Positions 9,851 through 15,333 of a stretch of DNA of 64,000 bases are shown in pieces (the stretch's first letter is position 1; every line of letters starts with the position of its first letter). Both the position numbers and the translations under genes were made by a program. This DNA is from Eledone cirrhosa (Eukaryota), in NCBI GenBank assembly GCA_964016885.1, contig OZ024742.1:54994001-55058000 (forward strand), in the 5' to 3' direction. The notes beneath the pieces were generated by a model. It was not told the DNA's origin, did not search any database, and saw only the letters and a program-made list of their open reading frames with translations.

Positions 9851-11570
9851 TTGGAATAAATGCTCTGAAATAGCGATATATATGTGAATATAGACATAGA
9901 ATATTCGAGAATATTCTGTATGTTTATAATAAACATTTTGAAGACCTAATCGCTATAGAATAGAATACGTCACGTATTACAATTAGATTCTCGATAAAAG
10001 CAAGGGAAGTAATCTACGCGTTTCATTCTTGTTAGAAATCATCAGGACTACATATCCAGTGCTTTTATCGAGAATGACACAGCTAGAGACTTATAGAATA
10101 CTTAGCTGTGTACAGGAACTGGTTTGAAAGAGCGGTTGCCGGTCCGGCAGAAATTAGAAATTGGAATAAATGCTCTGAAATAGCGATATATATGTGAATA
10201 TAGACATAGAATATTCGAGAATATTCTGTATGTTTATAATAAACATTTTGAAGACCTAATCGCTATAGAATAGAATACGTCACGTATTACAATTAGATTC
10301 TCGATAAAAGCAAGGGAAGTAATCTACGCGTTTCATTCTTGTTAGAAATCATCAGGACTACATATCCAGTGCTTTTATCGAGAATGACACAGCTAGAGAC
10401 TTATAGAATACTTAGCTGTGTACAGGAACTGGTTTGAAAGAGCGGTTGCCGGTCCGGCAGAAATTAGAAATTGGAATAAATGCTCTGAAATAGCGATATA
10501 TATGTGAATATAGACATAGAATATTCGAGAATATTCTGTATGTTTATAATAAACATTTTGAAGACCTAATCGCTATAGAATAGAATACGTCACGTATTAC
10601 AATTAGATTCTCGATAAAAGCAAGGGAAGTAATCTACGCGTTTCATTCTTGTTAGAAATCATCAGGACTACATATCCAGTGCTTTTATCGAGAATGACAC
10701 AGCTAGAGACTTATAGAATACTTAGCTGTGTACAGGAACTGGTTTGAAAGAGCGGTTGCCGGTCCGGCAGAAATTAGAAATTGGAATAAATGCTCTGAAA
10801 TAGCGATATATATGTGAATATAGACATAGAATATTCGAGAATATTCTGTATGTTTATAATAAACATTTTGAAGACCTAATCGCTATAGAATAGAATACGT
10901 CACGTATTACAATTAGATTCTCGATAAAAGCAAGGGAAGTAATCTACGCGTTTCATTCTTGTTAGAAATCATCAGGACTACATATCCAGTGCTTTTATCG
11001 AGAATGACACAGCTAGAGACTTATAGAATACTTAGCTGTGTACAGGAACTGGTTTGAAAGAGCGGTTGCCGGTCCGGCAGAAATTAGAAATTGGAATAAA
11101 TGCTCTGAAATAGCGATATATATGTGAATATAGACATAGAATATTCGAGAATATTCTGTATGTTTATAATAAACATTTTGAAGACCTAATCGCTATAGAA
11201 TAGAATACGTCACGTATTACAATTAGATTCTCGATAAAAGCAAGGGAAGTAATCTACGCGTTTCATTCTTGTTAGAAATCATCAGGACTACATATCCAGT
11301 GCTTTTATCGAGAATGACACAGCTAGAGACTTATAGAATACTTAGCTGTGTACAGGAACTGGTTTGAAAGAGCGGTTGCCGGTCCGGCAGAAATTAGAAA
11401 TTGGAATAAATGCTCTGAAATAGCGATATATATGTGAATATAGACATAGAATATTCGAGAATATTCTGTATGTTTATAATAAACATTTTGAAGACCTAAT
11501 CGCTATAGAATAGAATACGTCACGTATTACAATTAGATTCTCGATAAAAGCAAGGGAAGTAATCTACGCG
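9851..11570 (-). repeat. 310-bp hammerhead-containing tandem array, left arm (about 5.5 copies, ribozyme on the minus strand)
   Basis: ttggaataaa at 9851, 10161, 10471, 10781, 11091, 11401. Reverse-complement HHR at 10009-10051 and every 310 bp. Confidence 0.97.
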
Positions 11571-11581
11571 AATAATCTACG

Positions 11582-14500
11582 CGAATATTCTATGTCTATA
11601 TTCACATATATATCGCTATTTCAGAGCATTTATTCCAATTTCTAATTTCTGCCGGACCGGCAACCGCTCTTTCAAACCAGTTCCTGTACACAGCTAAGTA
11701 TTCTATAAGTCTCTAGCTGTGTCATTCTCGATAAAAGCACTGGATATGTAGTCCTGATGATTTCTAACAAGAATGAAACGCGTAGATTACTTCCCTTGCT
11801 TTTATCGAGAATCTAATTGTAATACGTGACGTATTCTATTCTATAGCGATTAGGTCTTCAAAATGTTTATTATAAACATACAGAATATTCTCGAATATTC
11901 TATGTCTATATTCACATATATATCGCTATTTCAGAGCATTTATTCCAATTTCTAATTTCTGCCGGACCGGCAACCGCTCTTTCAAACCAGTTCCTGTACA
12001 CAGCTAAGTATTCTATAAGTCTCTAGCTGTGTCATTCTCGATAAAAGCACTGGATATGTAGTCCTGATGATTTCTAACAAGAATGAAACGCGTAGATTAC
12101 TTCCCTTGCTTTTATCGAGAATCTAATTGTAATACGTGACGTATTCTATTCTATAGCGATTAGGTCTTCAAAATGTTTATTATAAACATACAGAATATTC
12201 TCGAATATTCTATGTCTATATTCACATATATATCGCTATTTCAGAGCATTTATTCCAATTTCTAATTTCTGCCGGACCGGCAACCGCTCTTTCAAACCAG
12301 TTCCTGTACACAGCTAAGTATTCTATAAGTCTCTAGCTGTGTCATTCTCGATAAAAGCACTGGATATGTAGTCCTGATGATTTCTAACAAGAATGAAACG
12401 CGTAGATTACTTCCCTTGCTTTTATCGAGAATCTAATTGTAATACGTGACGTATTCTATTCTATAGCGATTAGGTCTTCAAAATGTTTATTATAAACATA
12501 CAGAATATTCTCGAATATTCTATGTCTATATTCACATATATATCGCTATTTCAGAGCATTTATTCCAATTTCTAATTTCTGCCGGACCGGCAACCGCTCT
12601 TTCAAACCAGTTCCTGTACACAGCTAAGTATTCTATAAGTCTCTAGCTGTGTCATTCTCGATAAAAGCACTGGATATGTAGTCCTGATGATTTCTAACAA
12701 GAATGAAACGCGTAGATTACTTCCCTTGCTTTTATCGAGAATCTAATTGTAATACGTGACGTATTCTATTCTATAGCGATTAGGTCTTCAAAATGTTTAT
12801 TATAAACATACAGAATATTCTCGAATATTCTATGTCTATATTCACATATATATCGCTATTTCAGAGCATTTATTCCAATTTCTAATTTCTGCCGGACCGG
12901 CAACCGCTCTTTCAAACCAGTTCCTGTACACAGCTAAGTATTCTATAAGTCTCTAGCTGTGTCATTCTCGATAAAAGCACTGGATATGTAGTCCTGATGA
13001 TTTCTAACAAGAATGAAACGCGTAGATTACTTCCCTTGCTTTTATCGAGAATCTAATTGTAATACGTGACGTATTCTATTCTATAGCGATTAGGTCTTCA
13101 AAATGTTTATTATAAACATACAGAATATTCTCGAATATTCTATGTCTATATTCACATATATATCGCTATTTCAGAGCATTTATTCCAATTTCTAATTTCT
13201 GCCGGACCGGCAACCGCTCTTTCAAACCAGTTCCTGTACACAGCTAAGTATTCTATAAGTCTCTAGCTGTGTCATTCTCGATAAAAGCACTGGATATGTA
13301 GTCCTGATGATTTCTAACAAGAATGAAACGCGTAGATTACTTCCCTTGCTTTTATCGAGAATCTAATTGTAATACGTGACGTATTCTATTCTATAGCGAT
13401 TAGGTCTTCAAAATGTTTATTATAAACATACAGAATATTCTCGAATATTCTATGTCTATATTCACATATATATCGCTATTTCAGAGCATTTATTCCAATT
13501 TCTAATTTCTGCCGGACCGGCAACCGCTCTTTCAAACCAGTTCCTGTACACAGCTAAGTATTCTATAAGTCTCTAGCTGTGTCATTCTCGATAAAAGCAC
13601 TGGATATGTAGTCCTGATGATTTCTAACAAGAATGAAACGCGTAGATTACTTCCCTTGCTTTTATCGAGAATCTAATTGTAATACGTGACGTATTCTATT
13701 CTATAGCGATTAGGTCTTCAAAATGTTTATTATAAACATACAGAATATTCTCGAATATTCTATGTCTATATTCACATATATATCGCTATTTCAGAGCATT
13801 TATTCCAATTTCTAATTTCTGCCGGACCGGCAACCGCTCTTTCAAACCAGTTCCTGTACACAGCTAAGTATTCTATAAGTCTCTAGCTGTGTCATTCTCG
13901 ATAAAAGCACTGGATATGTAGTCCTGATGATTTCTAACAAGAATGAAACGCGTAGATTACTTCCCTTGCTTTTATCGAGAATCTAATTGTAATACGTGAC
14001 GTATTCTATTCTATAGCGATTAGGTCTTCAAAATGTTTATTATAAACATACAGAATATTCTCGAATATTCTATGTCTATATTCACATATATATCGCTATT
14101 TCAGAGCATTTATTCCAATTTCTAATTTCTGCCGGACCGGCAACCGCTCTTTCAAACCAGTTCCTGTACACAGCTAAGTATTCTATAAGTCTCTAGCTGT
14201 GTCATTCTCGATAAAAGCACTGGATATGTAGTCCTGATGATTTCTAACAAGAATGAAACGCGTAGATTACTTCCCTTGCTTTTATCGAGAATCTAATTGT
14301 AATACGTGACGTATTCTATTCTATAGCGATTAGGTCTTCAAAATGTTTATTATAAACATACAGAATATTCTCGAATATTCTATGTCTATATTCACATATA
14401 TATCGCTATTTCAGAGCATTTATTCCAATTTCTAATTTCTGCCGGACCGGCAACCGCTCTTTCAAACCAGTTCCTGTACACAGCTAAGTATTCTATAAGT

Positions 14501-15333
14501 CTCTAGCTGTGTCATTCTCGATAAAAGCACTGGATATGTAGTCCTGATGATTTCTAACAAGAATGAAACGCGTAGATTACTTCCCTTGCTTTTATCGAGA
14601 ATCTAATTGTAATACGTGACGTATTCTATTCTATAGCGATTAGGTCTTCAAAATGTTTATTATAAACATACAGAATATTCTCGAATATTCTATGTCTATA
14701 TTCACATATATATCGCTATTTCAGAGCATTTATTCCAATTTCTAATTTCTGCCGGACCGGCAACCGCTCTTTCAAACCAGTTCCTGTACACAGCTAAGTA
14801 TTCTATAAGTCTCTAGCTGTGTCATTCTCGATAAAAGCACTGGATATGTAGTCCTGATGATTTCTAACAAGAATGAAACGCGTAGATTACTTCCCTTGCT
14901 TTTATCGAGAATCTAATTGTAATACGTGACGTATTCTATTCTATAGCGATTAGGTCTTCAAAATGTTTATTATAAACATACAGAATATTCTCGAATATTC
15001 TATGTCTATATTCACATATATATCGCTATTTCAGAGCATTTATTCCAATTTCTAATTTCTGCCGGACCGGCAACCGCTCTTTCAAACCAGTTCCTGTACA
15101 CAGCTAAGTATTCTATAAGTCTCTAGCTGTGTCATTCTCGATAAAAGCACTGGATATGTAGTCCTGATGATTTCTAACAAGAATGAAACGCGTAGATTAC
15201 TTCCCTTGCTTTTATCGAGAATCTAATTGTAATACGTGACGTATTCTATTCTATAGCGATTAGGTCTTCAAAATGTTTATTATAAACATACAGAATATTC
15301 TCGAATATTCTATGTCTATATTCACATATATAT
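11582..15333 (+). repeat. 310-bp hammerhead-containing tandem array, inverted right arm (12.1 copies, ribozyme on the plus strand)
   Basis: Reverse complement of the left-arm unit. cgaatattctatg at 11582, 11892 ... 15302. Ends at ttcacatatatat and merges into (TA)n. Confidence 0.97.
11724..11812 (+). ncRNA. Type I hammerhead ribozyme with palindromic minimal stem III (17 complete copies across both arms)
   Basis: Stem I GUAGUC(11748-53)/GAUUAC(11785-90), extended by a perfect 16-bp AUUCUCGAUAAAAGCA/UGCUUUUAUCGAGAAU helix. Core CUGAUGA 11754-60. Stem II UUCU-aaca-AGAA. GAAA 11775-78. Stem III ACGCGU palindrome. Cleavage GUA after 11784. Confidence 0.9.

Follow-up and report, generated by a model that had tools for sequence, protein, structure and literature searches.

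The window analysed here, a stretch of 64,000 nucleotides, carries at 9851-15333 an array of 310-bp repeats in which a hammerhead ribozyme motif recurs 17 times, and the locus raises the question of how such an array was put in place. Its insertion anatomy bears on which enzyme moves animal retrozymes, for which Penelope has been proposed from co-occurrence and pLTR homology, and on the origin of arrays, either directly from a circle in a single step or by later growth as DNA. An initial annotation described a retrozyme array built for dimeric cleavage; the 310-bp unit and all 17 hammerheads are found as it claimed, but they do not form a single tandem run. Instead, about 5.5 minus-strand units meet 12.1 plus-strand units head-to-head, with the following components.

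9663..9851, no strand: (TA)n tract at the 3' end of the left arm, a putative target, with microhomology of 2-3 nt
9851..11570, minus strand: left arm, 1720 bp, 5.55 units with five complete hammerheads, ribozyme sense on the minus strand
11560..11592, no strand: head-to-head junction with microhomology of CG and 13 nt duplicated by a switch to the right arm, a return and a second crossing
11582..15333, plus strand: right arm, 3752 bp, 12.10 units with 12 complete hammerheads
11606..11613, plus strand: the unit's only (AT)4 run, putative priming site on the nicked (TA)n target; the right arm ends in this run
15326..15379, no strand: (TA)n tract at the 3' end of the right arm, a putative target

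The CTGATGA cores divide into 12 on the plus strand (11754 to 15164) and five on the minus strand (11285 to 10045), and every copy has zero mismatches to the unit, such that 17.65 units (5,472 bases) are identical across the inversion. The unit is 34.5% GC, and no frame of 100 amino acids, no tRNA and no B box is found within the units. The arms are non-integer multiples of the unit, meeting at 11570/11582, and their four ends lie at unit positions 197, 56, 0 and 31. Helitron-type arrays have fixed termini at unit boundaries, and a Helitron-type DNA rolling-circle array is rejected on the positions of these ends. The outer ends of both arms, which are their 3' ends, join (TA)n. On the left, unit sequence ending in CCAAT passes into ATATAT with 2-3 nt shared, and on the right the arm stops inside the (AT)4 run with 8 nt shared; non-LTR retrozymes may show a target-site duplication longer than 4 bp, which is unreadable here because both flanks are (TA)n.

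Each complete unit contains a type I hammerhead, for which one copy serves as an example.

11724..11812, plus strand: one type I hammerhead as an example; predicted cut after GUA, at 11784/11785
11785..12094, plus strand: predicted 310-nt monomer between two cuts, its ends closed by stem I (fold prediction)

The core (11754-11760) is followed by GAAA (11775-11778), ACGCGU (11778-11783) and the GUA triplet. Distal stem I is a perfect 16 bp (11724-11739 with 11797-11812), separated by GG/CC and an internal loop from a proximal stem I of 6 bp (GUAGUC/GAUUAC); helix II starts with a U.U mismatch, followed by 4 bp and an AACA loop, and helix III in cis is a single base pair plus CGCG. The CUGAUGA/GAAA/GUA core, the distal stem and the hairpins listed in the initial annotation are all present, although its term 'minimal' does not hold: the helix sizes (I, 6 bp; II, 4 bp; III, 1 bp plus a palindromic loop) fit the canonical metazoan type I motif, with helix I of 6 bp and an internal loop, helix II of 4 bp and a palindromic helix III of 1-2 bp (PMC4209133). 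Since that definition includes the short palindromic helix III, a dimer-type design is ordinary, and such a helix III is common among animals. Minimal Penelope pLTR hammerheads have no helix III loop, a helix II of 7-8 bp and a helix I of 4-5 bp, and flank a reverse transcriptase frame (PMC4209133); this identity is ruled out by the canonical helix sizes and by there being no frame between copies.

The hammerhead match is not a chance one: with thresholds equal to the observed values (stem I at least 6 bp, stem II at least 4 bp), no such motif occurred in 20,000 dinucleotide-shuffled versions of the unit, and 23 of the 20,000 contained any relaxed match. At the gathering score Rfam gives no match in the whole window; Hammerhead_HH9 scores 19.2 bits (E 0.041), and the internal loop and loop 2, where a loop 1-loop 2 tertiary contact might form, align to it solely at that E-value, about 19 bits against a cut-off of 52. 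An E-value scan of 15400-64000 returned 111 Rfam matches, nearly all microRNA models on microsatellites or hairpins, and no hammerhead. The claim that the ACGCGU stem III is too short to fold in cis agrees with a predicted pair probability of 0.0, the 1-bp helix costing a computed 5.2 kcal/mol. The ACGCGU duplex is computed at -7.5 kcal/mol, and the inter-copy helix, present in the MFE fold of a two-ribozyme transcript with a probability of about 0.4, lends in silico backing to the dimer-type design and the retrozyme identity; the predicted fold of a transcript with two copies is a double hammerhead. The monomer is predicted to be highly self-paired with the ribozyme left free (z = -4.64; none of 100 shuffles as stable). 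Two features of the motif are weakening ones, and we count their combination, together with so modest a predicted helix probability, against the reading preferred below; axolotl monomers with either feature were 6% and 22% cleaved in an hour (PMC7229834). Reads across the ligation junction do not discriminate here, because tandem DNA and an uncleaved transcript share the junction sequence.

The repeat is a dispersed multi-copy family, as seen in one sequencing run (X1, presumed to be of the same species) and in an old relative within the window. Among 675 X1 contigs, 334 are at least 99% alike, 143 are 95-99%, 76 are 90-95% and 122 are below 90%, a mixed family in contrast to the uniform array. 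Contigs with loose ends into (TA)n end six times at 11613 and once at 11644. Six more antisense-to-sense joints occur in X1 at depth 5-20 with other breakpoints, in six different position pairs (unit positions 208-282 and 23-183), their short sides being 21-28 nt, below the reliability limit of 30; one joint has 14 of 22 letters in agreement with the sense strand as well. The 5' end of the left arm lies 6 nt before the predicted cut, which might have pointed to a cleaved template, but the chance of one of two ends landing so near the cut is about 8% and the X1 joints are scattered, and this idea was dropped.

The old relative lies 38 kb away and is 66% identical to the unit.

53967..54430, minus strand: relative of the unit, old and decayed, in which remnants of two hammerheads persist (nhmmer E 8e-15)

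Its end lies in the same AT-rich zone as those of the unit's arms. Both cores (54396 and 54143) have U3...A8 in place of C3-G8, a covariation known from Schistosoma Penelope elements (PMC4209133); the first remnant has a 5-bp helix III and a GUC triplet, and the second a compensated distal stem I. Counted on a gapless hand-set register, since a MAFFT alignment placed the 3' halves wrongly, the 14 distal stem pairs comprise six unchanged, six double-changed, one wobble and one broken, a pattern reached in 11 of 200,000 simulations. Within the family, the variant 11761 T>A closes pair 10.1-11.1; it makes up 21% of the summed X1 depth at that position and is the sole form in a further run (X6). 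Compensatory changes and a pair-restoring variant together support, at the level of sequence, selection on the ribozyme fold.

A possible source of the enzyme is also encoded in the window.

43515..45428, plus strand: Penelope-like reverse transcriptase and endonuclease reading frame with a broken N-terminus

This frame shows that machinery of the type is present in the genome and is at most a candidate partner; no DNA similarity to the unit was found, nor any pLTR homology between the unit and this single Penelope element of the window. We also note other hammerhead-like ends adjoining (TA)n in the window, and a 615-bp array that adjoins in the same (TA)n tract with no recognisable ribozyme: its unit gives no matches to relaxed hammerhead and HDV-like descriptors and none in Rfam to E 10. 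The 615-bp unit was considered as a diverged dimer and rejected, scoring 86 against 72 +/- 7 for shuffles (maximum 95).

A head-to-head inverted, 5'-truncated copy and a (TA)n target are both present here, and head-to-head inversions and microsatellite targets are traits of Penelope insertions (PMC8557442, PMC3846280); the same geometry arises in L1 from twin or dual priming (PMC2837659). The array very probably belongs to the animal non-LTR retrozymes, and its insertion was probably of Penelope type. Our preferred explanation is that a Penelope-type reverse transcriptase went repeatedly round one RNA circle, primed at nicks in both strands of a TA microsatellite. In a tandem transcript the ACGCGU palindromes of neighbouring copies would pair to form a double hammerhead and allow the predicted cut after GUA, and a lone monomer or circle, with a 1-bp helix III and U.U in helix II, is predicted to cut poorly, which would protect the circle. 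Drawing on published systems, we suggest that a host RtcB-type ligase would close the monomer and an endonuclease would nick (TA)n, after which the nicked 3' end may anneal to the unit's AUAUAUAU run to give the right arm with its longer shared sequence, and a second end may prime 25 nt further on to give the left arm with its shorter one. The two cDNAs would run 12.1 and 5.5 turns before being joined via the CG microhomology. That a circular template with two priming events made the array we put at a probability of about 0.58. The insertion is likely recent, and a product of copying is a better description of the array than the initially proposed source of 310-nt circular RNA.

Identical units fit a circular template as well as a linear multimer derived from a second uniform array, and the same retroelement, inserted in the Penelope manner, could have used as template a long linear and largely uncut read-through transcript of such an array, with a weak ribozyme that rarely cuts and circles irrelevant. 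The U.U at the base of helix II and the 1-bp helix III are in keeping with this, as are the Xenopus retrozyme dimers, of which 8 of 9 were uncleaved in vitro (bioRxiv 10.64898/2026.07.22.740005), and the L1 inversions that are produced from linear RNA (PMC2837659). RNA is on record for three of the 24 sequencing runs listed, and these share 0.06-0.07 of the unit's words, a low figure that fits a linear template and, like the uncleaved dimers, counts against the preferred reading; shares as small as this, in X15-X20, X23 and X24, carry no weight as matches; no listed RNA run carries the organism label of the best-matching run, and in one run (X21) no reads fell on the unit in about 1% of the run, too small a sample for a test. 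However, the compensatory changes and the pair-restoring variant imply selection on the ribozyme fold, the long stem that closes the monomer ends is part of its unusually stable fold, and tested animal retrozymes yield abundant circles (PMC7229834). A linear template is accordingly judged unlikely.

Alternatively, unequal exchange or replication-based rolling could have amplified a Penelope terminal repeat at the DNA level into a satellite; the hammerhead would then be a relic, and the inversion would stem from repair within a fragile stretch of TA. End-joining, too, produces templated duplications at junctions, a ribozyme-less array adjoins in the same tract, and local tandem amplification from pLTRs has been suggested (bioRxiv 10.64898/2026.07.22.740005). 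Yet identical arms that face head-to-head and both have their 3' ends in (TA)n are not a product of unequal exchange, X1 and the old relative repeat the 3' end position, and the ribozyme pairs are compensated, all of which make amplification as DNA improbable.

It is more doubtful still that, around a real unit and ribozyme, the inversion, the number of copies or their perfect agreement is an artefact of assembly or of a fold-back read. The absence of any difference over 5,472 bases could be taken in this way, as could the fall in summed X1 depth to 5,460 at 11562-11574 from above 100,000 nearby, and the window's own head-to-head junction is spanned by none of the 14 X1 pieces listed (686 more are unlisted). 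The two breakpoints, however, lie at different places in the unit (positions 197 and 0) and are accompanied by the 13-nt duplication, unlike a mirror fold-back, and X1 has six similar joints; the 615-bp array retains two single-copy variants, which argues that assembly does not erase all variation.

Equally doubtful is a broader scenario in which the 310-nt circle would be a mobile viroid-like RNA crossing animal species, written in by resident Penelope elements via two-ended rolling-circle copying at (TA)n, its monomer-competent U3-A8 ribozyme swapped for a circle-sparing, dimer-only one. Closed 340-nt contigs (unit plus 30) occur under two further organism labels with 1-2 differences from the window, each label having its own allele, found in X1 as a minority form, and trace DNA or close host kinship accounts for them equally well; metagenome contigs gave no matches in two pattern scans. 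Finally, a Penelope-type insertion whose inverted arm arose by self-priming on the antisense template at a palindrome, with no second target nick, as suggested for Penelope inversions with junction palindromes (PMC3846280), is very improbable, since both breakpoints do lie inside palindromes (CGCG; GAATATTC) but this coincidence is weak in a unit rich in palindromes, each outer end borders on (TA)n and shares microhomology with it, and the six X1 joints use as many distinct position pairs.

As elements of this class are already described, it is unsurprising that such an array exists, and what it adds is another retrozyme with an informative insertion anatomy. Like the metazoan non-LTR retrozymes of Cervera and de la Pena (2020, PMC7229834), it consists of tandem units in the range of 150-450 bp with GC below 45% and no coding frame, has a canonical type I hammerhead in each unit and a monomer that pairs with itself while leaving the ribozyme able to fold, and co-occurs with Penelope-like elements. 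Those retrozymes are expressed and circular, whereas the present array is known from DNA alone, and they are described as head-to-tail repeats, in contrast to the head-to-head arms and (TA)n targets here. Good cleavage as monomers is reported for most ribozymes of invertebrate retrozymes (PMC7229834), whereas helix III here is of the amphibian type: axolotl HHR_Amex1 likewise has a single base pair with a palindromic tetraloop as its cap, and HHR_Amex2 a U.U mismatch at the base of helix II (PMC7229834). Amex1, Amex2 and newt satellite 2 have units of 330-350 bp and dimers that cleave far better (PMC7229834). The present motif has the Amex1 and Amex2 features together in an apparently invertebrate genome, the comparison covering features of the motif. 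Three protein searches give a weak hint of an octopus-like host: the best named matches were Octopus bimaculoides (54%) in one, Hydractinia (47%) and a record labelled Herbaspirillum (64% across half of the query) in another, and Penaeus (65%) and Oculina (67%) in the third. If the host is a cephalopod, the class would reach a lineage for which a search returned general cephalopod papers only, which is no test of absence.

By the definition used for vertebrates by Li, Clavereau and Pollet (bioRxiv 10.64898/2026.07.22.740005), two or more successive units whose hammerheads are complete, this is an active retrozyme, and, as in their genomes, a Penelope element is present in the same genome. Their evidence is co-occurrence and pLTR homology across 35 genomes, none of them from a mollusc, and the evidence here is insertion anatomy; the 17 units exceed the seven-unit maximum of 75% of their families and fall below the extremes of 180-300. 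Penelope pLTR hammerheads are also type I and share the U3-A8 core variant with the old relative, although the unit differs from Penelope elements in its canonical rather than minimal ribozyme and in having no reading frame (PMC4209133). The sister family, with its different and compensated ribozyme, provides a natural pair in which to compare monomer and dimer hammerheads, and the multimeric identical arms in Penelope-type head-to-head order, with recurring 3' ends at the unit's AU run, provide a concrete system for asking which enzyme moves retrozymes and how arrays arise. Endonuclease-bearing Penelope-like elements share the head-to-head inverted 5'-truncated copy and the microsatellite targets (PMC8557442, PMC3846280), and L1 twin or dual priming likewise gives two inverted parts, each primed from one target strand and joined at a microhomology (PMC2837659). 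The array differs from L1 in that it lacks a poly(A) tail and any target-site duplication that can be read (PMC2837659), and in that both of its arms are multimers, beyond what a single linear monomer can template.

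The region from 9851 to 15333 is composed of a 310-bp unit with one hammerhead ribozyme motif per unit, arranged in two arms facing opposite ways. Of its 17 CTGATGA cores, 12 are on the plus strand and five on the minus strand, and there are no mismatches in any unit, so that the array reported in the initial annotation stands, with all units identical.

9851-11570, minus sense: left arm of the 310-bp array, 5.55 units
11582-15333, plus sense: right arm of the 310-bp array, 12.10 units
1-9665, plus strand, extending past the window start: array of a 615-bp unit, at least 15.7 near-perfect copies

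Because the left arm is minus sense and the right arm plus sense, the 5' ends of the arms meet, at a junction with CG microhomology and a 13-nt duplication. Both 3' ends continue into (TA)n. The right arm stops within the sole (AT)4 run of the unit, whereas the left arm extends to a point 25 nt beyond this in the unit and shares 2-3 letters with (TA)n; no target-site duplication is readable at the array, whose flanks are (TA)n tracts. The window is animal DNA with many TA microsatellites and retroelements; its repeat landscape resembles that of octopuses, if weakly, and protein searches do not converge on one host lineage. In the long (TA)n tracts at 9663-9851 and 17148-22438, identical short interruptions (AGTGT or TTGT) recur, a pattern that slippage on a short template might produce. 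Immediately beyond the right (TA)n tract of the array begins an RT element (15380-17100, plus strand) that is 5'-truncated and carries a PHD finger.

The array very probably belongs to an already described kind, the non-LTR retrozymes, which have been reported in numerous animals, among them coral, mussel and axolotl (e.g. PMC7229834). Among the papers listed by searches of the open literature, none was found to describe cephalopod retrozymes or head-to-head retrozyme arrays, although the supplements of PMC7229834 and 10.64898/2026.07.22.740005 may contain some; 235 Rfam hammerhead matches are counted, without description, in the giant squid genome (PMC6962438). The anatomy of its insertion makes the array useful, and its sister family is informative.

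The ribozyme is illustrated by one copy in the right arm:

11724-11812: example ribozyme, with a distal stem I of 16 bp, then a GG/CC step, an internal loop and a proximal stem I of 6 bp
11754-11760: its core, followed by a U.U mismatch and a helix II of 4 bp closed by an AACA loop
3' part: GAAA, palindromic ACGCGU and the cleavage triplet GUA

From the GUA triplet after ACGCGU the cut is predicted at 11784/11785. With stem thresholds set to the values observed in the unit, stems as long were found in none of 20,000 dinucleotide shuffles of the unit, and a relaxed hammerhead match in 23 of 20,000. Rfam returns Hammerhead_HH9 only, below threshold (E 0.041). The 310-nt monomer is predicted to fold with z -4.64, stem I closing the ends. 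For a transcript with two ribozymes the predicted minimum-energy fold is a double hammerhead, in which ACGCGU-ACGCGU pairing between copies has a probability of about 0.4 and helix III in cis 0.0; the duplex is predicted at -7.5 kcal/mol, and the single cis pair of helix III to cost 5.2 kcal/mol. The retrozyme identity and the construction for dimeric cleavage proposed earlier are thus supported in silico. The description of the motif as a 'minimal' type I hammerhead is not: canonical metazoan type I hammerheads have by definition 6 bp in helix I, 4 bp in helix II and 1-2 bp in helix III, whose palindromic loop impedes monomer cleavage (PMC4209133), and since the helix sizes here fit, the motif is canonical. 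Its predicted dimer design is not unusual in that class.

A 66%-identical relative elsewhere in the window bears on selection:

about 53967-54430, minus strand: decayed relative of the 310-bp unit, nhmmer E 8e-15

It matches the unit in 213 of 323 aligned columns and contains the remnants of two ribozymes, one with its core at 54396 and one at 54143. Both read TTGACA and so have a U3/A8 combination where the unit has C3/G8, a covariation reported from Schistosoma Penelope elements (PMC4209133). In the remnant at 54396, GAAA, a helix III of 5 bp and the triplet GUC persist, and the 3' stem I is lost; that at 54143 has a mutated core and a retained distal stem. Comparing the two sequences in a hand-set register, six of its 14 distal-stem pairs are unchanged, six are changed on both sides, one is a wobble and one is broken, a level of compensation attained in 11 of 200,000 simulations, which DNA-level repair of inverted repeats could partly mimic. 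Only two changes are present among the substitutions listed for the public sequencing run X1, in which summed depth does not equal copy number: 11761 T>A (21% of summed depth, six contigs), which closes pair 10.1-11.1 and is the sole form in run X6, and 11769 A>G in loop 2 (25%), the sole form in run X12. The compensatory changes together with 11761 T>A are sequence-based evidence for selection on the fold of the putative ribozyme RNA. A 14-nt block (11656-11669) is identical in the old relative (54241-54254) and is a candidate promoter or RT-recognition element.

A plausible scenario, with a probability of about 0.58, is that a tandem transcript of 310-bp units would undergo paired cleavage, the monomer would be closed by host ligase, as demonstrated for other retrozymes, and reverse transcription round the 310-nt circle would start from two nicks in (TA)n, the two cDNA arms being joined via microhomology. 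The identity of units across the inversion, within a mixed family, fits a single template molecule. A linear, multimeric template derived from a different uniform array would fit it equally well, and such a template in place of the circle is a possible, if clearly less favoured, explanation.

Occurrence in other runs was examined with a query comprising the adjoining 615-bp unit, the TA tract and one 310-bp unit. Shares were 0.24-0.80 in 14 of the 24 runs listed (11 organism labels) and 0.06-0.07 in the three recorded as RNA, values that do not single out the 310-bp unit. Four runs were compared in detail over 11458-11820. X1 has 675 contigs there, 334 of them at 99% identity or more and the others in lower bands of 143, 76 and 122. 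In X6 and in X12 the unit forms a single closed contig of 340 nt, which might equally reflect kinship of the hosts, traces of DNA or circular RNA; their alleles differ from each other, and each is a minority allele in X1. The fourth, X21, gave no reads on this interval with about 1% of the run sampled. X1 also has six further antisense-to-sense joints (depth 5-20, 1-3 letters shared), whose short sides of 21-28 nt are under the reliability mark of the method and one of which is in part accounted for by the distal-stem palindrome. Loose ends into (TA)n fall at 11613 in at least six contigs and at 11644 in at least one (7 of 54 loose ends listed). Growth of the array at the DNA level is unlikely. 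No read pieces cross the window's own arm junction among the X1 pieces listed; an assembly artefact is rated somewhat less likely still, and antisense self-priming is the least probable reading.

The 615-bp array has two single-copy variants (at 896 and 3316), and its 3' end meets the same (TA)n tract as the left arm via ATATAT microhomology. The unit folds with z -4.9, lacks hammerhead, HDV-like, Rfam and tRNA matches, and has no similarity found to the 310-bp unit. It is possibly a passenger of the same machinery, ribozyme-free or with an unknown ribozyme, and is arguably the more novel array.

Other hammerhead-like motifs adjoin (TA)n. An insert at 22440-22978 (minus strand), flanked by two (TA)n tracts, has a core at 22634 (TTGAAAA, of U3-A8 type, with a GTCC/GGAC helix II and a GUC triplet) and a perfect 33-bp inverted repeat at 22798-22870. 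A short repeat family (40181-41088 and 47463-47647) is arranged head-to-head and adjoins (TA)n; its copies at 40835 and 47638 have the core CAGAAGA, in which position 4 is A. The motif at 46400-46460 (minus strand; CCGAAGA core at 46453, helix II of at least 7 bp), about 45 nt before (TA)n, resembles a Penelope 3' end. Separately, a 413-bp inverted repeat (51023-51435 and 53544-53956, 99% complementary) encloses incomplete copies of a 341-bp unit, arrayed in tandem within (ACAT)n tracts.

One reading frame is Penelope-like:

43515-45428, plus strand: Penelope-like frame, RVT_1 E 3e-11

It shows 38% identity over 640 columns with a protein bearing PF01541, the GIY-YIG domain, and its best named match in the protein search is from Octopus bimaculoides (54%). 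Since it has an apparent frameshift near its start and no DNA similarity to the 310-bp unit was found, it is not to be counted as an established partner. The surrounding element (43291-45802, plus strand) lies after a (TA)n tract and before a CA-rich duplication of 158 bp. At the 3' end of the element no canonical hammerhead core was found. A Penelope link of retrozymes is argued in 10.64898/2026.07.22.740005.

The anatomy of the array matches that of Penelope-like elements, which form head-to-head inverted 5'-truncated copies and target microsatellites (PMC8557442; PMC3846280), and its two-arm layout matches the geometry given by L1 twin or dual priming (PMC2837659). In the 2026 preprint 10.64898/2026.07.22.740005, no cleavage in vitro was seen for eight of the nine dimers of Xenopus retrozymes, which would by analogy count against activity of the predicted ribozyme. 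The axolotl monomers Amex1 and Amex2 cleaved to 6% and 22% within one hour, and far better as dimers (PMC7229834). The motif described here unites the helix III type of Amex1 with the U.U mismatch of Amex2, and since efficient cleavage of the monomer is described for most retrozymes of invertebrates (PMC7229834; review PMC7761336), its amphibian-type helix III is a modest twist.
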